A stretch of DNA of 43,476 bases, taken from a virus. The position numbers and the translations under genes were made by a program. Below are positions 475-27,241 of this stretch, in pieces (position 1 is the first letter of the stretch; each line of letters opens with the position of its first letter). The notes under the pieces were generated by a model. The model was not told the DNA's origin. It searched no databases and saw only the letters and a program-made list of their open reading frames with translations. The stretch lies in IMG/VR virus record IMGVR_UViG_3300028576_000001; one strand, 5' to 3'.

Positions 475-618
475 GTTCTATTATAAAACCATGTGAAACT
501 GCTTGCCCTGGCTCTTGCCAAAACATAAAAAGGATAATTGAACTGTATTGGTAAATTTGAAAAGTTAATTTCAAATTGAAGATTCAGTTTGATTGTGCAT
601 ACAAAGGAAGTCCATCAC

Positions 619-1701
619 ATGAAAAGACATATTCACCCACTTAATAATCAGAATTGCACCTTGTGGGAAGCAATATGTGATATGGAAAACCTGAAACTTG
701 CACACCAAAATGCGAAGAAAGGCAAAGGGTGGTATGCAGAAGTAAAGATGGTTGATGAAAACCCTGAATATTATTTGGGATTGCTTCAACAAATGATGCT
801 GAACCATACTTACAGAACTTCTGAATACAAGACCTTCATCAAAAAGGACAGCGGAAAAGAAAGGGAAATATTCAAGCTTCCTTACTTTCCTGACCGCATT
901 TGTCAATGGGCAATATTGCAGGTCATTGAACCAATTCTGATAAGGAACTTTACCAATGACACCTATTCTGCTATACCAGGCAGAGGTATTCACCAAGCGT
1001 TCACAAGGATAAAACATGCGGTTCAGAATGATGTTCCAGGTACACAGTATTGCTTAAAGCTTGATGCAAAGAAATATTACCCTTCCATTGACCACAACAT
1101 CCTGAAAGACAAATACAGGCGGTTGTTCAAGGACAATGACTTACTTTGGTTGTTGGATGAAATCATTGGTTCAACACCAGGCAACAAAGGCATACCGATT
1201 GGGAATTACCTTTCACAGTACAGTGGAAACTTTTATCTGTCATCCTTTGACCACTGGCTGAAAGAAGTGAAGGGTATCAAGTATTATTACCGTTACATGG
1301 ATGACATAGTTATTTTGTCAAATTCAAAAGAACATTTGCACCAGTTAAGAAAAGAAATTGATGAATACTTCCGCAAGGAATTGAAGCTGACCATCAAGGA
1401 AAACTGGCAAGTGTTCCCCACATTTGACAGGGGCATTGATTTTGTTGGTTACCGTATCTTTTTAGGATATTCACTGTTAAGAAAGACCACATGCAAGCAG
1501 ATGAAGGTCAAGATGGTAAAAATCAGAAAGAAAGTTGAAGGCGGTCAGGAAATGAATCATTCAGAATGGTGTTCAATCAATTCATACAAGGGGTGGTTGA
1601 TGCATTGTGACAGTTACAGATTAAGTATGAAATACATTGAACCTATTCAGAAACATGCAAATGACTATTACATCAAAAATATTAAAAGAAAGGCAGCGTG
1701 A
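619..1701 (+). CDS. DGR reverse transcriptase
   Basis: 360 aa from ATG 619, with AAAGGAAG RBS at 602-609 (the track ORF begins upstream at 589). Motifs: FPDRICQWAI, LDAKKYYPSIDH, the DGR-diagnostic GIPIGNYLSQ, and catalytic YRYMDDIVIL. Confidence 0.93.
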   Translation: MKRHIHPLNNQNCTLWEAICDMENLKLAHQNAKKGKGWYAEVKMVDENPEYYLGLLQQMMLNHTYRTSEYKTFIKKDSGKEREIFKLPYFPDRICQWAILQVIEPILIRNFTNDTYSAIPGRGIHQAFTRIKHAVQNDVPGTQYCLKLDAKKYYPSIDHNILKDKYRRLFKDNDLLWLLDEIIGSTPGNKGIPIGNYLSQYSGNFYLSSFDHWLKEVKGIKYYYRYMDDIVILSNSKEHLHQLRKEIDEYFRKELKLTIKENWQVFPTFDRGIDFVGYRIFLGYSLLRKTTCKQMKVKMVKIRKKVEGGQEMNHSEWCSINSYKGWLMHCDSYRLSMKYIEPIQKHANDYYIKNIKRKAA

Positions 1702-3091: not shown

Positions 3092-4168
3092 ATGGCAATA
3101 AAAATCACACTTGACCCTGGGCATGGTAGGACTGGAAACCCCTATCCCCCACAAAAGGGTTACTATGAAGGAACACAAATGTGGAAGCTTGCAAATTTCC
3201 TGAAAACGGAACTTGAAAAGTATGGTTTTGAAGTTGTAACAACAAGACCAAATTTGAATGATGACCCTTCCCTTTCAGCAAGAGGGCAAACAGCAGGAAA
3301 GAATGGTTCTGCAATGTTTATATCCCTTCACAGTAATGCACCTGCAAGTGCTTCTGACACAAAACCAACAGGTTCAGTCATATACTATTCTTTGACAGAT
3401 GCTAACAACAAAGTATTTGCTGATAAGCTTGGAAAAAAGGCATCCGAAGTAATGGGGCATTATTACAGGGGAAGCTTAACAAGGGCATCATCCAGTGGTG
3501 CTGATTACTATGGTGTAATTAGGGCAGCAGCACAAAGTGGATGCAAAGCAGCTTTTATTGTTGAACATGGATTCCATACCAATATTAAGGATTCAGCATT
3601 CCTTATTGTGGATGATAACCTTCAAAAATTGGCGGTAGAAGAAGCAAAAGTGATTGCACAACACTTTGGTCAAGATACAAAAGAAAAACCCCCACAGGTC
3701 AATCCTGGGGTTCTGTATAGGGTTCAGACTGGTGCATTCAGTGTGAAGTCAAATGCAGATGCGTTACTTGCAAAAGTAAAGGCAGCAGGATTTGATACCT
3801 ATATGGTCAAAGTCAATGGACTGTATAAGGTTCAAGTTGGTGCTTTCAGTGTAAAAACAAATGCTGATGCTATGGCTGCAAAGTTAAAGGCAAAAGGATT
3901 TGATGTTTACATTACAACCGAAAGTGGAACACCTGTTGCATCTGAAACACAAAAGACAAAACCTGAAATTAAGGTTGGAAGTAAAGTCAAAATCAAACAG
4001 AACGCAAATGTGTATGGTAAGACAACAAAGTTCCAGTCATGGATATATCCTTTGACTTGGATTGTACATTCCATGAGTGGTGACAGGGTTGTTATCAACA
4101 AAGATACCACAGGTAAATATGCAATTATGTCACCTGTAAAGCTATCAGATTTGACATTGGTTGGATAA
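3092..4168 (+). CDS. Endolysin: N-acetylmuramoyl-L-alanine amidase (Amidase_3) with two SPOR repeats and a C-terminal SH3-like binding domain
   Basis: LDPGHG...ISLHSNA...EHGFHTN zinc-amidase motifs. Duplicated YRVQTGAFSVKSNADALLAKVKAAGF / YKVQVGAFSVKTNADAMAAKLKAKGF. Confidence 0.9.
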   Translation: MAIKITLDPGHGRTGNPYPPQKGYYEGTQMWKLANFLKTELEKYGFEVVTTRPNLNDDPSLSARGQTAGKNGSAMFISLHSNAPASASDTKPTGSVIYYSLTDANNKVFADKLGKKASEVMGHYYRGSLTRASSSGADYYGVIRAAAQSGCKAAFIVEHGFHTNIKDSAFLIVDDNLQKLAVEEAKVIAQHFGQDTKEKPPQVNPGVLYRVQTGAFSVKSNADALLAKVKAAGFDTYMVKVNGLYKVQVGAFSVKTNADAMAAKLKAKGFDVYITTESGTPVASETQKTKPEIKVGSKVKIKQNANVYGKTTKFQSWIYPLTWIVHSMSGDRVVINKDTTGKYAIMSPVKLSDLTLVG

Positions 4169-4171
4169 AAT

Positions 4172-4193
4172 ATTTGTTACTAATGTGTTACTA
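4172..4193 (-). repeat. 22-nt TAGTAACA-N3-TAGTAACAAAW element, copy E1
   Basis: The minus strand reads TAGTAACACATTAGTAACAAAT, with two 8-mers phased 11 nt apart. Copies are at 4343, 23471 and 25669. Confidence 0.7.
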
Positions 4194-4194
4194 A

Positions 4195-4342
4195 CCACTG
4201 GGTTTTAACCCTTCCTTCTGTGTTCAAAAAGTTCAACAATCCGCATAAATACAGGGTTTAAGGCACTTGTAAATTGAACAAATTCATGATATAATATCCA
4301 CAGATAACCCCGAACTGCTTATTTATAGCGGTTGGGGGTTAT
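4195..4342. other. Candidate attP region (non-coding, next to the integrase 3' end)
   Basis: Assigned by position only. It is a 150-nt gap between the convergent endolysin and integrase genes. No core sequence can be identified without the host site. Confidence 0.3.
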
Positions 4343-4346
4343 TTTT
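4305..4346. terminator. Bidirectional terminator between endolysin and integrase
   Basis: AACCCCGAAC (4305-4314) pairs with GTTGGGGGTT (4331-4340) in 9 of 10 positions. A T-run follows at 4342-4346. Confidence 0.65.
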
Positions 4347-4364
4347 GTTACTAACCTGTTATTA
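4343..4364 (-). repeat. 22-nt element, copy E2
   Basis: The minus strand reads TAATAACAGGTTAGTAACAAAA. Its first TAA is the integrase stop codon. It differs from E3 at one base. Confidence 0.7.
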
Positions 4365-5396
4365 GTTCAAAGTTGCATCTATCAATTCAATAGCTTCTTT
4401 CAGTTCTTCAATTGTCTTGTGGGTGTAGATTCTTTCACCCACTTCTTTTGATTTGTGACCCATCATCAAATCAATACAGACTTTGTTTGCACCTGCGGAA
4501 TCAAGTCTTGACCTGAATGTATGCCTGCATTCATGGGGTGTGTGTTCCATTCCCAACTGTTCCATGATGGTATTCCAAAAGATGTAATACTGACTGTTGG
4601 AAATTTTCTTCCCTTCATAACTGAAAAGATATTTGTTCCCCTGGTCTTTTCTTCTTTGAACTAACTGAACAATCTTGGAATGAATTGGAACAATACGGTC
4701 TTTTCCTGCTTTAGTCTTGATACCACCTTTTATTGTTCCTGCTTCCATGTCCACATTATCTGATTCAATAGACAGCATTTCACTGATTCTGAATCCTGTG
4801 TATAAAAGGAATATAACTGAATCAACCCATTCCTGGTCTTGAATTTCCCACACTTTGTTGACTTCTTCATCAGTGAATGGTCTTTTCTTGGTTTCAGGTA
4901 TTGGTTCAGCGGTTATCAACTGGGAATATGATTTGTTGATAACATCAAGTTCCAGTGCAAATCTATCCAAGTGACCAAACAGGTTCTTAATTGCCCACTG
5001 GGTAGAATAACCACATCCACAATTATCAATACAATCTTGCATATGGAAAGACCTGATTTCTTTATACTTCATGTTTTCAATTTTCTTACAATGCTTATAA
5101 GCTGATTTCAATGAACCTTGGGATGAAGCTGACATCTTATGAAGCTTCTTTTCTTTGAACTTTTCAAACAGTTCCTTCATGGTTATTTTGGCAGCATCTA
5201 TGTCATAGGGGTTGCGGTTATATTCAGCAAGAATCATCAGACCTTCTTCCCTTGTTGCACTGTAACCTATTGTGTCATATATGGGATGACCTTTTTCATT
5301 CCATCCTATTGTTTTACGAATAACATATGGTCGCCTGCGATTACCTGAAAGCTTGGCAACTGTACCATAACCATTTGGATTCTTGATGATGTTCAC
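4362..5396 (-). CDS. int: Tyrosine recombinase / phage integrase
   Basis: 344 aa. N-terminal SAM-like domain. Catalytic region has GFRISE...HECRHTF...LMGH...IYTH (the R-H-R-Y set). Confidence 0.92.
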   Translation of the reverse strand: MNIIKNPNGYGTVAKLSGNRRRPYVIRKTIGWNEKGHPIYDTIGYSATREEGLMILAEYNRNPYDIDAAKITMKELFEKFKEKKLHKMSASSQGSLKSAYKHCKKIENMKYKEIRSFHMQDCIDNCGCGYSTQWAIKNLFGHLDRFALELDVINKSYSQLITAEPIPETKKRPFTDEEVNKVWEIQDQEWVDSVIFLLYTGFRISEMLSIESDNVDMEAGTIKGGIKTKAGKDRIVPIHSKIVQLVQRRKDQGNKYLFSYEGKKISNSQYYIFWNTIMEQLGMEHTPHECRHTFRSRLDSAGANKVCIDLMMGHKSKEVGERIYTHKTIEELKEAIELIDATLN

Positions 5397-6244: not shown

Positions 6245-6377
6245 TGTTACACATGTTACAGTGTTACACATATTTTCTTATTACTTTATTTTTATAGAAA
6301 CTATAAATTTTGATGATTTGAAGCTTTGAAAATATAAGAAATACAAAGTAAGTGTAACATGTGTAACATGTGTAACA
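6245..6377. repeat. Convergent heptamer arrays around an AT-rich core (locus A)
   Basis: TGTTACA at 6245, 6254 and 6262. An 84-bp AT-rich core. TGTAACA at 6353, 6362 and 6371. Confidence 0.85.
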
Positions 6378-9371: not shown

Positions 9372-9779
9372 ATGAAAATGAGTTTTTCAGAGCAGTTGAA
9401 AAAAGCAATGTTGGAACGAAACATGAACCAAGCTGAACTTTCAGCACTTACTGGAATCGGAAAATCATCAATCAGTCAGTACCTTTCAGGTAAAAATGAA
9501 CCAAAAGAACTTGCGTTGAACAAGATTGCAGAAGCACTTGATTGTTCAGTTGCTTTCCTGAAAGGTGAAACGAATTGCAGCGATTCAACACCTGACCCCA
9601 AAGGATTGAGAAATGTACCTGTTGACCAGGCTGCAAAAATGCTTGGTAAGTCAAGGCAATTTGTAAGGGTTGCCCTTCAAAGAGGTATTGCACCATTTGG
9701 ATTTGCGGTAAAGTTGTCAGGCGAAAAATTTTCTTACCACATTTCACCGAAGAAGCTGAATGAATATATCGGAATATGA
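9372..9779 (+). CDS. XRE-family HTH DNA-binding protein with a C-terminal extension
   Basis: MNQAELSALTGIGKSSISQYLSGKNEPKELALNKIAEALDCSVAFL. Confidence 0.8.
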   Translation: MKMSFSEQLKKAMLERNMNQAELSALTGIGKSSISQYLSGKNEPKELALNKIAEALDCSVAFLKGETNCSDSTPDPKGLRNVPVDQAAKMLGKSRQFVRVALQRGIAPFGFAVKLSGEKFSYHISPKKLNEYIGI

Positions 9780-22163: not shown

Positions 22164-22469
22164 TGTTACAGTTTATTATGGTTATGTTACGGTTGAATTT
22201 TTCAAGTGTAACAATGAAAGCCTTGATAATACAGGGTTGTTACACATGTTACACATGTTACGGTTGTTTTTAACTTAATAACAATATTAGTGTTTTTTAT
22301 AATCATTAAATTTTAATGATTTCATAAAAAATAACTATATAAGAAGTATAACTGTAACAAGTGTAACACTTAACCTGTGAAAGTATTGATGTGTCTGACT
22401 TTGAAGGTGTTACACATGAAAAATACAACCGTAACATTTTAAGTGTAACTGTAACATTGATGTGTAACA
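22164..22469. repeat. Convergent GTAACA/TGTTAC arrays around an AT-rich core (locus B) in a 352-nt non-coding gap
   Basis: TGTTAC(A) at 22164, 22185, 22238, 22247 and 22256. A 92-bp AT-rich core. GTAAC(A) at 22354, 22363, 22431, 22444, 22451 and 22464. Opposite-orientation copies at 22208 and 22408. Confidence 0.85.
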
Positions 22470-22498: not shown

Positions 22499-22915
22499 AT
22501 GACAGCAAAACAATATTTAAGGCAAGCATACCGCCTGAATGAATTGATAAATAGTCACATCAGAGAAGTTGAACAGTTAAGGCTTCTTTCAACAAGTGTT
22601 CCAAGTACAGATTTTTCAAAGGAAAGAGTTCAAGGGGGCAAGCTTCCAGGGGATAGAATTTCAAATATTATTGCAAAAATTGTTGACCTTGAAAAGCAAA
22701 TCAATGATGAAATAGACCACTTTGTTGATTTGAAAAAGGAAATTCATGATGTTATTGAAGCGGTGAAAAGTCCTGACCAAAGGCTTGTGTTAAGATGCAG
22801 GTATATTGAATTTTTAACCTGGGAAAAGACTGCTGAAATTATGAACTATTCTATTAAACAGATACATAGAATACATTCAGCAGCATTACAGAATGTAGTT
22901 ATTCCAAAAAGATGA
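22499..22915 (+). CDS. Late-gene transcriptional activator, sigma-70 region-4-like (DUF1492/ArpU/RinA type)
   Basis: 138 aa, immediately upstream of terS. C-terminal HTH RLVLRCRYIEFLTWEKTAEIMNYSIKQIHRIHSAALQNV. Confidence 0.7.
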   Translation: MTAKQYLRQAYRLNELINSHIREVEQLRLLSTSVPSTDFSKERVQGGKLPGDRISNIIAKIVDLEKQINDEIDHFVDLKKEIHDVIEAVKSPDQRLVLRCRYIEFLTWEKTAEIMNYSIKQIHRIHSAALQNVVIPKR

Positions 22916-22968
22916 CATGAAATGTCCTTGTATGTCACTGTTAATATATGGTTCAATTAAACTTGAAG

Positions 22969-23000
22969 AAATAGCAGCAAGTGAATTGCTGCTATTTTTT
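22969..23000 (+). terminator. Rho-independent terminator between the late activator and terS
   Basis: AAATAGCAGCAA-gtgaa-TTGCTGCTATTT (12-bp arms), followed by a T-run. Confidence 0.75.
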
Positions 23001-23026
23001 ATTTTGATTGAAAGGCGGTGTTGCAG

Positions 23027-23473
23027 ATGGCACTGACAAAGAAGCAGAAAGTGTTTGCAGATGAATATTTAGTTGATACAAATGCAACACAGGCTGCAAT
23101 CAGGGCAGGTTATAGTGAAAAAACAGCATATAGTCAAGGACAGAGATTGTTGAAGAATGTTGAAGTTCAAAACTATATAGAAGAACAGCTTGAAAAGGTT
23201 CACAATGAAAATATTGCAGATGCATCAGAAGTCATGATGTACTTAACTTCTGTTTTGCGTGGTGAATCTATGTCAGAAGTTATTGTGATTGAAGGTACTG
23301 GTGAAGGATGTTCAGATGCAAGAAGAATGATGAAAGCACCTGATGAAAAAGACAAAATGAAAGCTGCTGAACTTCTTGGGAAAAGATATGGGTTGTACAA
23401 AGATAATATGAACATCATTGGTGCAATTCCTGTTGTTATTCAAGATGACCTGGATGATGAAGATGATGAATAG
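23027..23473 (+). CDS. terS: Terminase small subunit (Terminase_2 / P27 family)
   Basis: LTKKQKVFADEYLVDTNATQAAIRAGYSEKTAYSQGQRLLKNVEVQNYI. ATG 23027 follows GAAAGGCGGTG. Confidence 0.88.
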   Translation: MALTKKQKVFADEYLVDTNATQAAIRAGYSEKTAYSQGQRLLKNVEVQNYIEEQLEKVHNENIADASEVMMYLTSVLRGESMSEVIVIEGTGEGCSDARRMMKAPDEKDKMKAAELLGKRYGLYKDNMNIIGAIPVVIQDDLDDEDDE

Positions 23474-23492
23474 TAACAGGTTAGTAACAAAA
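23471..23492 (+). repeat. 22-nt element, copy E3
   Basis: TAGTAACAGGTTAGTAACAAAA. Its first TAG is the terS stop codon. Confidence 0.7.
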
Positions 23493-23551
23493 TTATTGAC
23501 AAAGCCTGTGTTTTCAGCATCTTGCATTTATTGCACCATAAAAAGGCGGTG

Positions 23552-23952
23552 ATGAACATGCAAAAGTTGAACATTTCATTGAAGAAAGTTGTTGGAAAGA
23601 AATACAACAAGTTTTGGAAGTTCAAAGGCAGATACAGAATTGTAAAAGGTTCAAGAGCATCTAAAAAATCAAAGACTGCTGCATTATGGTATATAACTAA
23701 TATGATGAAATATCCTGATGCAAATACCTTGGTGATAAGAAAGACTTTCCGAACAATCAAGGATTCCTGTTTCACTGAATTGAAATGGGCAATCAACAGG
23801 TTGTGTGTTCAGGAATTTTGGAAAATCACTGAATCACCGCTTGAAATGACTTACATTCCCACAGGTCAGAAGATTTATTTCAGGGGTCTTGATGACCCAT
23901 TGAAAGTCACTTCTATCACTGTTGAAGTTGGTTGCCTGTGTTGGATGTGGAT
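23552..23952 (+). CDS. terL: Terminase large subunit, exon 1 (ATPase N-terminal part)
   Basis: Walker A VKGSRASKKSKT. ...GLDDPLKVTSI...CLCWMWI ends in the Walker B strand. The reading frame runs into the intron and stops at 23992. Start ATG is 23552 or 23558, after AAGGCGGTG. Confidence 0.85.
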
Positions 23953-24818
23953 TAACATTATCGGTTCACATCATAAAAATAAACTTCTCTAATTGCTGGA
24001 ACACCCTAACGTAAAGACGAGGGCAATCAGCAGCGAAGCTACTTGACAATAATAAATGGTTATGGTATCATATACTTACGAAATACAGGTAAGGACGGTG
24101 ATACCATGAAAGAAGTCTGGAAGGACATCAAGGGATATGAGGGCTTCTACCAAGTGAGCAATCAAGGATGTGTGAAGAGCCTTGGCGGTTGGTGCGGAAC
24201 TACTCTAAGGAAAGAGAAAATCCGCTCCACAAGCCTTACGCATGACGGATATGTGAAAGTAAGGCTGATACACCAAGGAAGAGACAAGACGGCGAGAGTT
24301 CACAGATTGGTAGCAGAGGCATTCGTTCCAAATCCTGAAAGCAAAAGCACAGTCAATCACAAAGATGGAAACAAACAGAACAACATTGTTGAAAATCTTG
24401 AATGGGTTGACAGGAAAGAACAAATGGTTCACGCTTACAAGATGGGATTAAAAACTTCAAGGCTTGGTTCTGAAAATTCCAATGCAAAACTTACCGATGA
24501 ACAAGTGAAAGAAATCCGAAAACTATATGTTCCACAAAGCAAAGAATTTGGAACGGTTGCACTTGGCAAAATATACGGTGTGACAAATAGGGTAATAGGA
24601 TTGATTATAAACGGTAAGGCTTATAAAAATGTCAAGTAGAACGTTCAACGACTATCGAAAGCAGAAAAGCATCCACAAGGGTGCTTTTTTTGTTAGTAGA
24701 GTAGGGTTCAAGCGAATCCGAAACGGGAGGCACACTTCTCCGGAAGTGCGAAGATATAGTCTGCTCTATATGGAAACATATAGAGGGCAAGCGGAAGCGG
24801 CTTGCCCGTAACACAATG
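23953..24818 (+). mobile_element. Group I intron (866 nt) interrupting terL and carrying an HNH homing-endonuclease ORF
   Basis: P1: exon ATGTGGAT (23945-23952) pairs with the intron guide GTTCACAT (23964-23971), with a U.G pair at the splice site. P10: TCG (23961-23963) pairs with exon-2 CGA (24819-24821). The intron ends in G at 24818. The conserved core element AAGATATAGTC is at 24751-24761. Perfect hairpins occur at 24763-24784 and 24787-24807. Splicing gives ...CWMW-I-EEAYEI... Confidence 0.85.
24106..24639 (+). CDS. Intron-encoded HNH homing endonuclease (NUMOD4 + HNH_3 type)
   Basis: EVWKDIKGYEGFYQVSNQGCVKSL (NUMOD4). RVHRLVAEAF...VNHKDGNKQNNIVENLEW (HNH). ATG 24106 follows AAGGACGGTGA. 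GC content looks locally higher than in the flanking sequence. Confidence 0.88.
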   Translation: MKEVWKDIKGYEGFYQVSNQGCVKSLGGWCGTTLRKEKIRSTSLTHDGYVKVRLIHQGRDKTARVHRLVAEAFVPNPESKSTVNHKDGNKQNNIVENLEWVDRKEQMVHAYKMGLKTSRLGSENSNAKLTDEQVKEIRKLYVPQSKEFGTVALGKIYGVTNRVIGLIINGKAYKNVK

Positions 24819-25671
24819 CGAAGAAGCATATGAAATCATGAAAGAATCTGATTTTGACATGCTTGATGAATCCATTCGTGGTGAAGTTCCAGAAGGCTTG
24901 TTCAAACAGATAACAATGACCTTCAACCCATGGAATGAACATCACTGGATAAAGAAGCGTTTCTTTGATGCACCCCCTGACCCTGATATTCTTGCACTGA
25001 CAACCAATTACATGTGCAATGAATGGTTGGATGCAGCGGATAGAAAGGTCTTTGAAACAATGAAGAAAAACAATCCCCGAAGGTACAGGGTTGCAGGTCT
25101 TGGTGACTGGGGAATTGTTGAGGGTCTTATATTTGAGAACTGGGAAGAAAAAGCCTTTAACCTGGAAGAAATCAAAAAGATACCTGGTATCAAGTCAGCT
25201 TTCGGTCTTGACTTTGGTTACACAAATGACCCTTCTGCACTATGGTGTGGAATGATTGACCTGCAAGGTAAAACCATCTATGTGTTTGATGAAATGTATA
25301 AAAAAGGTATGTCTAATGAAGCAATTGCAAAGGAAGTCACAAATATGGGATACCGAAAGGAACGAATCAGGGCAGATTCAGCAGAACCGAAGTCAATTGA
25401 CAGGTTGCGTGATATTGGTCTTTCAAACATCACTGCTGCAAGAAAAGGAAAAGACAGTGTGAATAATGGAATTGACTTTATCCAGGACTTCAAAATTATC
25501 ATTCACCCAAGGTGTGTAAACTTCATCACTGAAATAAGCAACTATACCTGGGATACAGATAAGTTTGGAAAGAAGTTGAACATCCCTATTGATGACTTTA
25601 ACCACTTGATGGATGCAATGAGATATGCCCTTGAAGAATTTGTCAAAGGGAAGTCTTTTTCTTTTGATTAG
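24819..25671 (+). CDS. terL: Terminase large subunit, exon 2 (remainder of the ATPase plus the nuclease domain)
   Basis: EEAYEI...TFNPW... then GLDFGYTNDPSA...DSAEPKSI...HLMDAMRYAL, the RNase-H-like nuclease motifs of PBSX-type terminases. Confidence 0.85.
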
Positions 25672-25690
25672 TAACATGATAGTAACAAAA
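25669..25690 (+). repeat. 22-nt element, copy E4
   Basis: TAGTAACATGATAGTAACAAAA. Its first TAG is the terL stop codon. Confidence 0.7.
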
Positions 25691-25756
25691 CACTTTGAAA
25701 ACATTGTATTTCTTGGTGTTATCATATATGAGGTAATGAAAGGGGGTGAATGAATC

Positions 25757-27241
25757 GTGTTTAACTTTTTTCAATCTGAAACTGAAAGAGTGAACAACAT
25801 CATCAGAATGGGTGCTGAAACAGTGATTACTGATGAACGGTTCATTGAACTTGAAATTCAGCGGTTCAAGGCAAGTCGAAGAAGAAAAGAAATGTTTGAT
25901 GGTGAAAGGTACTTTGCAGGTAACCATGACATCCTGAAAAGAAAAAGGACTGTTATTGGTGAAGGCGGTGAATTGACCGAAATTGACAACCTTCCAAACA
26001 ACAGGATTGTTGATAACCAGTACAAGAAGATGGTCAATCAAAAGACAAATTACCTGCTTGGTCAACCAATAGCAATCAGAACAGAAAATGAAATTTATGA
26101 TAAGCTTTTGAAGCAGATGTTCAATAAGCGTTTCATGCGTTTGTTGAAGAACCTGGGTAAGGATTCCTTGAATGAAGGCATTGGATGGTTGTTTGTTTAC
26201 TACAATGAACATGGTGAATTCGCCTTAAAGAAGTTCAAAGGATATGAAATCATTCCTGGTTGGGCAGATGCAGACCACACCATCCTTGATTATGCAATCA
26301 GGATATATGAAGTCATTGCTTATGAAGGTGACCAGGAAAAGACTATTGAAAAAGTTGAAGTCTATGATGAAAATGGAATTCATTACTTCACCCTGGAAGA
26401 TGGAAGGCTTGTTCCTGACAATCCCTTCTTTGCAAATTACTTCACCACCACTGACCATGAAGGCAATGACCAAGGATGGAACTGGTCAAGAATTCCGCTG
26501 ATTCCCTTCAAATACAACAGTGAGGAAATACCACTTATCAAGAATGTGAAATCTTTGCAGGATGGCTTGAATATTATCCTTTCCAACTTCCAAAACAATA
26601 TGGAAGAAGATGCAAGGAACACCATTCTTGTTTTAGTGAACTATGATGGTGAAAAACTTGGTGAATTCAGAAAGAACCTGGCAACCTATGGTGCTGTTAA
26701 GGTCAAGACCGTTGATGGTGCAGCAGGTGACCTGAAAACATTGCAGGTTGAAGTGAATGCTGAAAACTACAAGGCAATTATTGAGATATTCAAGAAAGCA
26801 ATTATTGAAAATGCAATGGGTTATGATGCAAAGGATGACAGACTTTCAGGTGAACCAAATCAGATGAATATTCAATCAATGTATTCTGATATTGACTTGG
26901 ATGCAAATGAAATGGAAACTGAATATCAAGCTGCATTTGAAGAATTACTTTGGTTTATCAATTGTCATTTTGCAAACACTGGTCTTGGTAACTTTGAGGA
27001 TGAACCAGTTGAAATTATATTCAATCGTGACATGTTGATGAATGAAGCAGAAGTCATTGAAAACATCAACAAATCAATTGGAATTCTTTCTGATGAAACC
27101 CTTGTATCACAGCATCCTTGGGTTGATGACCCACAAGCTGAACTGGAAAGGAAGAAAGCTGAAAAAGAAGCTGCAATGGCAGAATATCAGAATGCCTTCA
27201 AGCCTTACCCTGGTGAAGGTGGTGTTGTAGATGAAGAATAG
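25757..27241 (+). CDS. Portal protein (SPP1 gp6-like)
   Basis: 494 aa, directly after terL. GTG start after GAAAGGGGGTGA. The size, position and acidic C-terminus fit a portal protein. Confidence 0.8.
   Translation: MFNFFQSETERVNNIIRMGAETVITDERFIELEIQRFKASRRRKEMFDGERYFAGNHDILKRKRTVIGEGGELTEIDNLPNNRIVDNQYKKMVNQKTNYLLGQPIAIRTENEIYDKLLKQMFNKRFMRLLKNLGKDSLNEGIGWLFVYYNEHGEFALKKFKGYEIIPGWADADHTILDYAIRIYEVIAYEGDQEKTIEKVEVYDENGIHYFTLEDGRLVPDNPFFANYFTTTDHEGNDQGWNWSRIPLIPFKYNSEEIPLIKNVKSLQDGLNIILSNFQNNMEEDARNTILVLVNYDGEKLGEFRKNLATYGAVKVKTVDGAAGDLKTLQVEVNAENYKAIIEIFKKAIIENAMGYDAKDDRLSGEPNQMNIQSMYSDIDLDANEMETEYQAAFEELLWFINCHFANTGLGNFEDEPVEIIFNRDMLMNEAEVIENINKSIGILSDETLVSQHPWVDDPQAELERKKAEKEAAMAEYQNAFKPYPGEGGVVDEE

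Follow-up and report, generated by a model that had tools for sequence, protein, structure and literature searches.

Why should the same 22-nt sequence mark the end of the integrase gene and of both terminase genes in one phage? The question is raised by IMG/VR virus record IMGVR_UViG_3300028576_000001, a stretch of 43,476 nt (called the window here, at its full length). An earlier note, made from the letters alone, had drawn attention to an element built of two 8-mers with three nucleotides between them, present in four copies (E1 to E4), three of which fall on the int, terS and terL stop codons. We consider it probable that this element, referred to below as the doublet, is an arm-type site of a heterobivalent tyrosine integrase (Int), and that E3 and E4, the copies at terS and terL, are additional sites occupied by Int, through which it would act on the packaging genes.

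Four doublets, two of which frame attP

A search of the window for TAGTAACA-N3-TAGTAACAAAA with up to two mismatches returned exactly four matches, i.e. E1-E4, at the positions reported earlier (Table 1). No doublet was found in 100 dinucleotide-preserving shuffles of the window, and a scan of it with up to four mismatches added no further degenerate copies. The exact 8-mer TAGTAACA occurs 7 times in the window (0.94 expected). The remaining details of the earlier description also proved accurate: the starts of the two 8-mers are 11 nt apart, TAG-TAA double stops are present in two frames, and both the sequence and the open reading frames (ORFs) confirm that the first triplets of E2, E3 and E4 serve as stop codons for int, terS and terL, respectively. 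E1, which terminates no gene on its own strand, and E2 bracket the candidate phage attachment site (attP), the gap between them being 149 nt (4194-4342). E1-type positions, beside the 3' end of a convergent endolysin gene, were observed in dozens of relatives.

Surveys with the doublet pattern gave at least 111 loci in IMG/VR for the N3 spacing, at least 103 for an N4 control, at least 120 in a bacterial-genome scan and 72 matches for the TAGTGACA variant. Such raw counts say little and therefore genomic context was used as the test. Among the matches listed, the commonest setting was a pair of doublets on the same strand, 140-200 bp apart, between an integrase gene and the 3' end of a convergent endolysin gene, and the Pfam domains tallied beside doublets were Phage_integrase (22+11), Amidase_2, CW_7, SPOR, Glucosaminidase and GH25. 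The integrases adjoining doublets belong to one tyrosine-integrase family (340-400 aa, at least 35 unique proteins) and end in or beside the doublet. Members of this family were present within 400 bp of the doublet at 37 of the 111 N3 loci, compared with 3 of the 103 N4-control loci (again among the matches listed), i.e. the N3 spacing is specific to the Int-family context. Two attP layouts occur in the relatives, with the doublets either co-directed with int, as in the window, or opposed to it, and this flip of orientation argues for a site that acts at the DNA level.

The crossover core was located with the aid of an integrated relative (G003, whose Int is 67% identical). The two ends of this prophage have only a 12-mer, TATTGTATCATA, in common, located between the doublets and corresponding by homology to window positions 4285-4296 (29/35 nt); the core position proposed for the window thus derives from homology to G003 and not from the window's own host. 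The core candidate bears no likeness to TAGTAACA, i.e. the arm repeat differs from the core. Another relative (G005) shares with the window the unbroken attP arrangement, and in a third (G020) GC-rich host DNA directly abuts the promoter, hairpin, E2 and int. The promoter in question is a near-consensus promoter-like sequence inside attP, whose -10 element overlaps the core candidate and whose layout is also found in G003, G005 and G020. The hairpin that follows it would, as predicted from its sequence, terminate plus-strand transcripts. As the promoter runs into this terminator about 10 nt downstream, its product would be either a ~45-nt RNA or a transcript antisense to int. In the prophage state, the -35 element of the promoter would derive from host DNA.

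Further repeats were noticed in and around attP. A second repeat within it (4227-4245 and 4274-4279) consists of a direct GTTCAA-N3-GTTCAA and an inverted TTGAAC, and GTTCAG repeats are present in G003. Either core-type Int sites or sites for an excisionase may be represented here. In the endolysin-side arm of many loci (e.g. window 4194-4210, L077, L101 and L210), a loosely conserved AAAA(T/C) tract is found on the side facing the core, 6-8 nt before a (G)GT that adjoins the first repeat; it may reflect a bend or a degenerate third site.

Judged from their sequence and setting, E1 and E2 represent the arms of attP and belong to a known kind of site; the earlier note had recognized that they bracket attP but had not identified them as arm sites. 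In Cluster J mycobacteriophages, pairs of arm-type sites (P1/P2 and P3/P4) flank the core (PMC3706429). As with lambda Int (P1/P2 and P'1-P'3), L5 and Cluster J, the repeats are short, direct and unlike the core, are paired about one helical turn apart and lie on both sides of the crossover core beside int. In some relatives one arm even contains three contiguous repeats, a feature also of lambda P' (true triple repeats are found in L009, L032, L079, L102 and L105). Arm-type sites being textbook components of attP, there is nothing unusual in E1 and E2 themselves, although the arm motif of an undescribed integrase family of Clostridia phages can be defined from them. As far as could be found, neither the TAGTAACA motif nor this family has been described: a literature search on TAGTAACA, and on arm-type combined with GTAACA, returned nothing relevant.

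The window's integrase is predicted to carry a lambda-Int-like N-terminal arm-binding domain. Its AlphaFold model (predicted local distance difference test, pLDDT, ~87) has strands at residues 12-15, 24-32 and 38-46 and a helix at 49-61, which, if modelled correctly, is the same extra strand-strand-strand-helix domain as in lambda Int. Full-length lambda Int (1z1b/1z1g) aligns to it over 358-375 columns (375 for 1z1b), compared with 281-294 for N-truncated chains. Conservation within the family (30 members) is highest at the N-terminus; a Pfam search with the N-terminal 74 residues matched no family, even at an E-value of 10, and no second Int-N-like domain was found among the window's proteins. 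We propose that the doublet would present a pair of 8-bp sites separated by one helical turn, with one N-terminal arm-binding domain on each, so that E1 and E2 together would supply four arm sites for an Int tetramer and frame a core situated at the -10 element of a small promoter.

Doublets at the ends of the packaging genes

E3 and E4 lie 19-21 kb from attP, and relatives likewise have 1-3 doublets outside it. This placement is a departure from known arm-type sites: unlike in lambda, L5 and Cluster J phages, the same doublet recurs at a distance from attP, where it coincides with the terS and terL stop codons (and in relatives with the ends of other late genes, too), and these distant copies are co-oriented with transcription and tied to a hairpin-containing cassette.

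The bracketing of terL by two doublets recurs in G003, G005, G010, G012, G013 and G024 and partly in G004, the integrases of which are 54-67% identical to that of the window. In relatives without the terL intron the two doublets are spaced about 1.3 kb apart, and G024 has a third copy beyond the portal gene. A comparison of 80 TerL relatives revealed doublets at both the terS-terL and the terL-portal junction of the closest ones, i.e. the element recurs at orthologous junctions, as the earlier note had suggested should be checked. In some of the other TerL relatives a 137-nt insert precedes the doublet, and some have no intergenic cassette at all.

From these comparisons, E3 and E4 are recognizable as part of an optional junction cassette of 50-100 nt, comprising a stop codon, the doublet, a hairpin and a ribosome-binding site. 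The layout of the late copies is fixed in 53 unique cases: the doublet is followed by AA(A), then by a hairpin that covaries, a T-run that closes with TTTATT and the ribosome-binding site. The cassette can be missing as a block, e.g. in L113, where about 50 nt (doublet and hairpin) are absent from the terS-terL junction. The upstream gene stops exactly on the first triplet of the doublet in half of the unique contexts (31/62), and within -7 to +11 nt of it in 44/62. All doublets outside attP are co-oriented with transcription.

The late copies and the attP arms were also found to change together. The two attP arms are always of one type per genome, either TAGTAACA (A type) or TAGTGACA (G type), with no mixed case among 45 genomes. 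The type has switched at least 9 times on the Int tree (6 independent supported pairs). In two genomes with G-type arms the copies elsewhere follow suit: G025 has TAGTGACA/TAGTGACT on the terL stop codon, and G041 has three gene-end doublets with TAGTGACA as the proximal repeat. This argues for one shared binding protein, probably Int. Moreover, in orthologous cassettes the stem, loop, spacer and flanks diverge and the 8-mers are kept, which favours selection for recognition over copying of whole cassettes.

The phenomenon is also seen in G041 (= L506). The whole contig is 15,182 bp long and encodes an integrase of the same family, a D5/DUF5906 primase, a terS-like helix-turn-helix (HTH) protein, a phrog_36 late regulator and a tail-completion protein, as well as a tape-measure gene that spans the contig ends; no terL, portal or capsid genes were seen in it. 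Its doublets outside attP lie on three gene stops (463, 10416 and 12128). G041 is probably a circular satellite-like element.

How Int might act at these sites can be sketched as follows. E3 and E4, being the same sites at the 3' ends of terS and terL, would most likely be occupied by the same protein as attP. Bound there, Int could act as a roadblock or as a helper of the terminator just upstream of the hairpins; alternatively, terL could be looped out between the two Int-bound doublets. As a side effect, joints for the exchange of terS, terL and portal alleles would be provided by the conserved islands of 19-22 bp. What the comparisons show is the architecture of the sites, their association with the Int family, where the core lies, the repeated bracketing of terL and the joint variation of copies inside and outside attP; the choice of Int over its excision partner as the binder, and any effect on terL, are inferred. 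A more specific version, which we put forward only tentatively, is that Int, or Int together with its excision partner, docks on the stop-codon doublets of late and packaging genes and gates transcription or DNA handling of terL and neighbouring genes, e.g. by keeping the terminase silent or looped out until excision.

Several observations weigh against this interpretation. The late copies are dispensable: six genomes with the Int family (G008, G009 and G021, which carry a Terminase_2 terS, and G023, G027 and G035, which come from the TerL-relative set) have no late doublet. In one large group of TerL relatives the first repeat has decayed to AAGAAACA, and G032 keeps such a decayed copy (with a AAGAAACA-like first repeat) alongside a different integrase. 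The late copies of G048 mix A-type and G-type repeats. The A/G switch is not tracked by any residue of the Int N-terminal domain; the identity between A-type and G-type integrases is at most 63% even for the nearest ones, and the N-terminal domains of these differ no more than those of A-A pairs. In the window itself, the hairpins of E3 and E4 are no more stable than shuffled sequences (z -0.24 and +0.29). RNA-library (Logan) contigs of four studies cross E4, which implies that any block there is not absolute; this is a weak point, as DNA carry-over is possible and transcript ends are invisible in such contigs. Finally, homologues of an excisionase-like protein encoded at 9372-9779, or of its C-terminal domain, are present in 16 of 17 doublet-bearing genomes, and co-occurrence therefore cannot separate Int from this partner. 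Four further contigs with late doublets (G016, G018, G001 and G002) encode no integrase at all, but as linear contigs, probably cut before the integration module, they are uninformative on this point.

The surroundings of E3 and E4 were also inspected for core look-alikes and duplications. Local alignments of the attP interior with the sequences to the right of E3, to the right of E4 and to the left of E3 gave none that was convincing, and no convincing direct repeat was found between the left of E3 and the right of E4. The best alignment, of 13 nt, falls inside the portal coding sequence and is reached in 18 of 500 shuffles. The lack of a core look-alike beside the late copies makes it unlikely that terL is an integrated cassette or that a second att site exists there. 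A promoter reading of E3 and E4 was likewise rejected: TTGACA or TTGAAA occurs 6-7 nt past the doublets, there is no usable -10 element at E3, and a consensus scan predicted no promoter at either place. The recurring AAGCCTG...TTTATT, considered as part of a promoter, is actually the hairpin and T-run of the homologous cassette.

Arm-type sites at the boundaries of terL are an unusual and undescribed arrangement, conserved and changing in step with the attP arms, and seen across a family of Clostridia phages and a 15-kb satellite-like element. If Int or its partner does bind there, excision and packaging would be physically and directly linked in temperate phages, and the coupling could be general as well as undescribed. 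The relative timing of the two processes decides whether the phage's own or host DNA is packaged (lateral transduction). In practical terms, the arm motif can be learned from attP and the remaining genome then scanned for ectopic copies.

Precedents for regulation by recombination proteins through att-type sites exist. KplE1 IntS and TorI repress intS via att sites (PMC2951348), and in Cluster J phages a regulatory role was proposed for inverted arm-like sites at the start of int (PMC3706429). By analogy, the late doublets may be recombination-protein sites that double as transcription control. None of these precedents is located at terminase gene boundaries: the KplE1 and Cluster J sites control int and lie in or next to att, whereas those of the window are remote from it, in the packaging module.

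Other proteins and roles considered for the doublets

Among the candidate binders tested, only Int accompanies doublets everywhere. Two phage proteins were ruled out: the complete genomes G006 and G007 have attP doublets, and carry neither a DUF1492 (ArpU-like) late regulator nor a Terminase_2 terS.

The alternative that survives best, although we regard it as rather improbable, is that the doublets are bound not by Int but by a recombination directionality factor (RDF; an excisionase such as Xis, Cox, Apl or RdfS). Factors of this type recognize direct repeats in helical phase, and some of them act both at attP and at promoters elsewhere; a protein with this habit would account for the presence of one motif at attP as well as in the late operon. 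Dual-purpose directionality factors are exemplified by P2 Cox and 186 Apl. RdfS binds attP and promoters (PMC11963761), and TorI, as mentioned above, represses intS. The window has a candidate for this role in the HTH_3 protein with an excisionase-like HTH_17 tail whose co-occurrence with doublets was described above, and the 11-bp phasing of the doublet suits winged-helix filaments. Full-length homologues of this protein occur in most doublet-bearing genomes, and in G008, G021 and G037 the tail alone forms a separate small ORF. Its domains make it a candidate for a directionality factor; the HTH_17 match falls short of the Pfam cut-off, and no C-terminal-domain match was found in G006. The position of the sites speaks for Int: they occupy the two outer ends of attP, one of them on the int stop codon, which is the place of arm-type Int sites. 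Sites of directionality factors are usually confined to one arm, close to the core, and comprise at least three successive repeats, unlike the doublets of the window. The likeness to Cox, Apl and RdfS, in which one protein reads phased repeats at attP and elsewhere in the genome, ends at the second sites: the known ones of these factors are promoters of lysis-lysogeny or excision genes, and those of the window are the 3' ends of late-operon genes.

A different role was suggested in the earlier note, namely that the doublets are module-boundary sequences promoting cassette exchange. As their primary role, with 19-22-bp islands carrying two-frame stops that serve to swap int/attP, terS, terL and portal alleles and with any binding outside attP being irrelevant, this is in our opinion unlikely. 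Part of the suggestion is upheld, in that the element recurs at orthologous junctions and allele swaps do break at doublets: in L030 a different terL is joined at E4 to a portal gene of 94% identity, L046 and L113 have a different terS and lack the E3 cassette, similarity breaks at E1 in L033, L077 and L081, and three unrelated ORFs lie between the E3-like and E4-like cassettes of G041. The presence or absence of the cassette as a block and the frequent coincidence of the first triplet with the stop codon are also in its favour. These joints are not decisive, because they are at the same time gene ends, where phage mosaic joints cluster regardless, and the effect of the doublet is inseparable from that of the gene end. 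Exchange as such leaves unexplained the identity with the attP arm motif and the joint switch to TAGTGACA, and equally the retention of the 8-mers while spacer and cassette drift.

It is still less likely that the element acts as RNA, i.e. that UAGUAACA repeats upstream of a hairpin form a processing, termination or antitermination signal for an RNA-binding protein. The proposal in the earlier note of a transcript-processing or termination signal finds some support in the relatives, in which a covarying hairpin and T-run follow the doublet in a fixed register, and the uniform orientation of the copies outside attP relative to transcription agrees with it. Also, a strong terminator-like hairpin (22966-23000, 15 pairs and a T-run) stands between the DUF1492/sigma-r4-like late regulator gene and terS, which suggests that the late genes need read-through or antitermination. 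In the window the unstable hairpins at E3 and E4 and the RNA-library contigs that cross E4 (a weak argument, for the reason given above) speak against it. Furthermore, in the two arrangement classes the attP doublets have opposite orientations with respect to both flanking genes, the 11-nt period suggests B-DNA phasing, and the doublet and hairpin do not overlap.

The earlier note had also linked the doublets to two arrays (6245-6377 and 22164-22469) with which they have the hexamer GTAACA in common. The shared hexamer was confirmed, and the notion of phased binding sites is supported, although for the integration machinery and not for the factor that would read the arrays. That the doublets are outlying sites of the array protein (e.g. 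an immunity repressor), acting like the stoperators of mycobacteriophage L5, now seems highly improbable. The L5 stoperators are reportedly some 20-30 asymmetric sites in short intergenic gaps, in one orientation, often touching stop codons and read by the immunity repressor. The doublets outside attP resemble them in being asymmetric, intergenic, uniformly oriented relative to transcription and in contact with stop codons. They differ in number (merely 2-3 sites outside attP, two of them in the window), in matching the attP arm motif and in having no link to the repressor-like arrays: GTAACA-N3-GTAACA arrays are absent from all 16 related doublet-bearing contigs (15 of them at least 90% complete), which largely refutes this alternative and indicates that the arrays belong to the immunity module and not to the integrase. 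The flanks of the hexamer (TAGTAACA in the doublets, TGTGTAACA as the array unit) and the period (11 vs 9 bp) differ as well. At both places the arrays flank AT-rich spacers in inverted orientation, and they are common only to the closest relatives, L098, L028 and L081.

An equally slight chance is given to a host DNA-bending or regulatory protein that the phage would use at attP and at the packaging genes, with the A and G variants mirroring the hosts (lambda uses IHF at attP and cos); it would accord with the concentration of the bacterial-genome matches listed in Lachnospiraceae and other Clostridia (amid many chance hits) and with the lack of an Int residue tracking the A/G switch, but the outer-end positions at attP suit arm sites rather than bending sites, and beside the 120 bacterial-genome doublets among the matches listed only integrase (14) and lysin domains recur, with 168 other families found 1-4 times each, which argues against a host regulon.

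Gene content of the window

The window represents the circularly permuted genome of a temperate siphophage. Its gene order is: the reverse transcriptase of a diversity-generating retroelement (DGR), lysis genes, attP, int, the immunity region, the early operon, the DUF1492/sigma-r4-like late regulator and terS, followed by terL with an HNH intron, an SPP1-type portal gene and tail genes. The features discussed here are listed in Table 1.

Table 1. Positions of the doublets, attP components and neighbouring genes in the window.
Feature	Position	Strand	Remarks
E1	4172..4193	-	endolysin-side attP doublet, P-arm-like; 3 nt past the endolysin stop codon (4166-4168), which is on the opposite strand
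E2	4343..4364	-	int-side attP doublet, P'-arm-like; first triplet TAA is the int stop codon
E3	23471..23492	+	doublet; first triplet TAG is the terS stop codon; head of the terS-terL junction cassette (to ~23552)
E4	25669..25690	+	doublet; first triplet TAG is the stop codon of terL exon 2 (which ends at 25671); head of the terL-portal cassette (to ~25756)
attP interior	4194..4342		candidate crossover core at ~4285-4296, CATGATATAATA on the + strand, by homology to the ends of G003
Promoter-like TTGTAA-17-TATAAT	4267..4295	+	inside attP; -10 overlaps the core candidate; directed to E2 and the int 3' end
Hairpin and T-run	4302..4344	+	overlaps the E2 tail; -27.5 kcal/mol, z -5.2, 0/200 shuffles fold as well
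Endolysin (Amidase_3 and SPOR)	3092..4168	+	last late gene ahead of attP
Tyrosine integrase, 344 aa	4362..5396	-	Pfam Phage_integrase; predicted N-terminal arm-binding domain at residues ~8-62 (nt ~5211-5375)
Candidate excision partner (RDF), 135 aa	9372..9779	+	XRE-type HTH_3 and weak C-terminal HTH_17 (E 2.5e-4, below the Pfam cut-off)
terS (Terminase_2)	23018..23473	+	Pfam
terL	23553..25671	+	exon 1 to 23953; intron 23954-24819 with HNH/NUMOD4 ORF; exon 2 24820-25671
Portal protein (SPP1 gp6-like)	25757..27241	+	

The start codon of terL is probably at 23553 or 23559. The limits of its intron follow from the alignment of intron-less relatives (L073 and L046), which extends to 23953 and resumes at 24820. 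The exact 23953/24820 joint is also present in RNA-library (Logan) contigs of 3 studies, a joint that intron-less relatives or DNA carry-over could give as well. In other contigs the HNH ORF (~24044-24634) is swapped for 8-40 unrelated letters, which suggests that variants of the intron without the ORF exist.

No close phage relatives were found in GenBank; the sole match is of 60 nt at ~23978-24044, just inside the 5' end of the intron, to Staphylococcus phages. An Rfam RT-17 RNA (504-604) lies just upstream of, and overlaps, the DGR reverse-transcriptase gene (window 504-1701). DNA near-identical to positions 22900-26300 occurs in sequencing runs of 19 studies, labelled as soil, wastewater, anaerobic digester and biogas fermenter.

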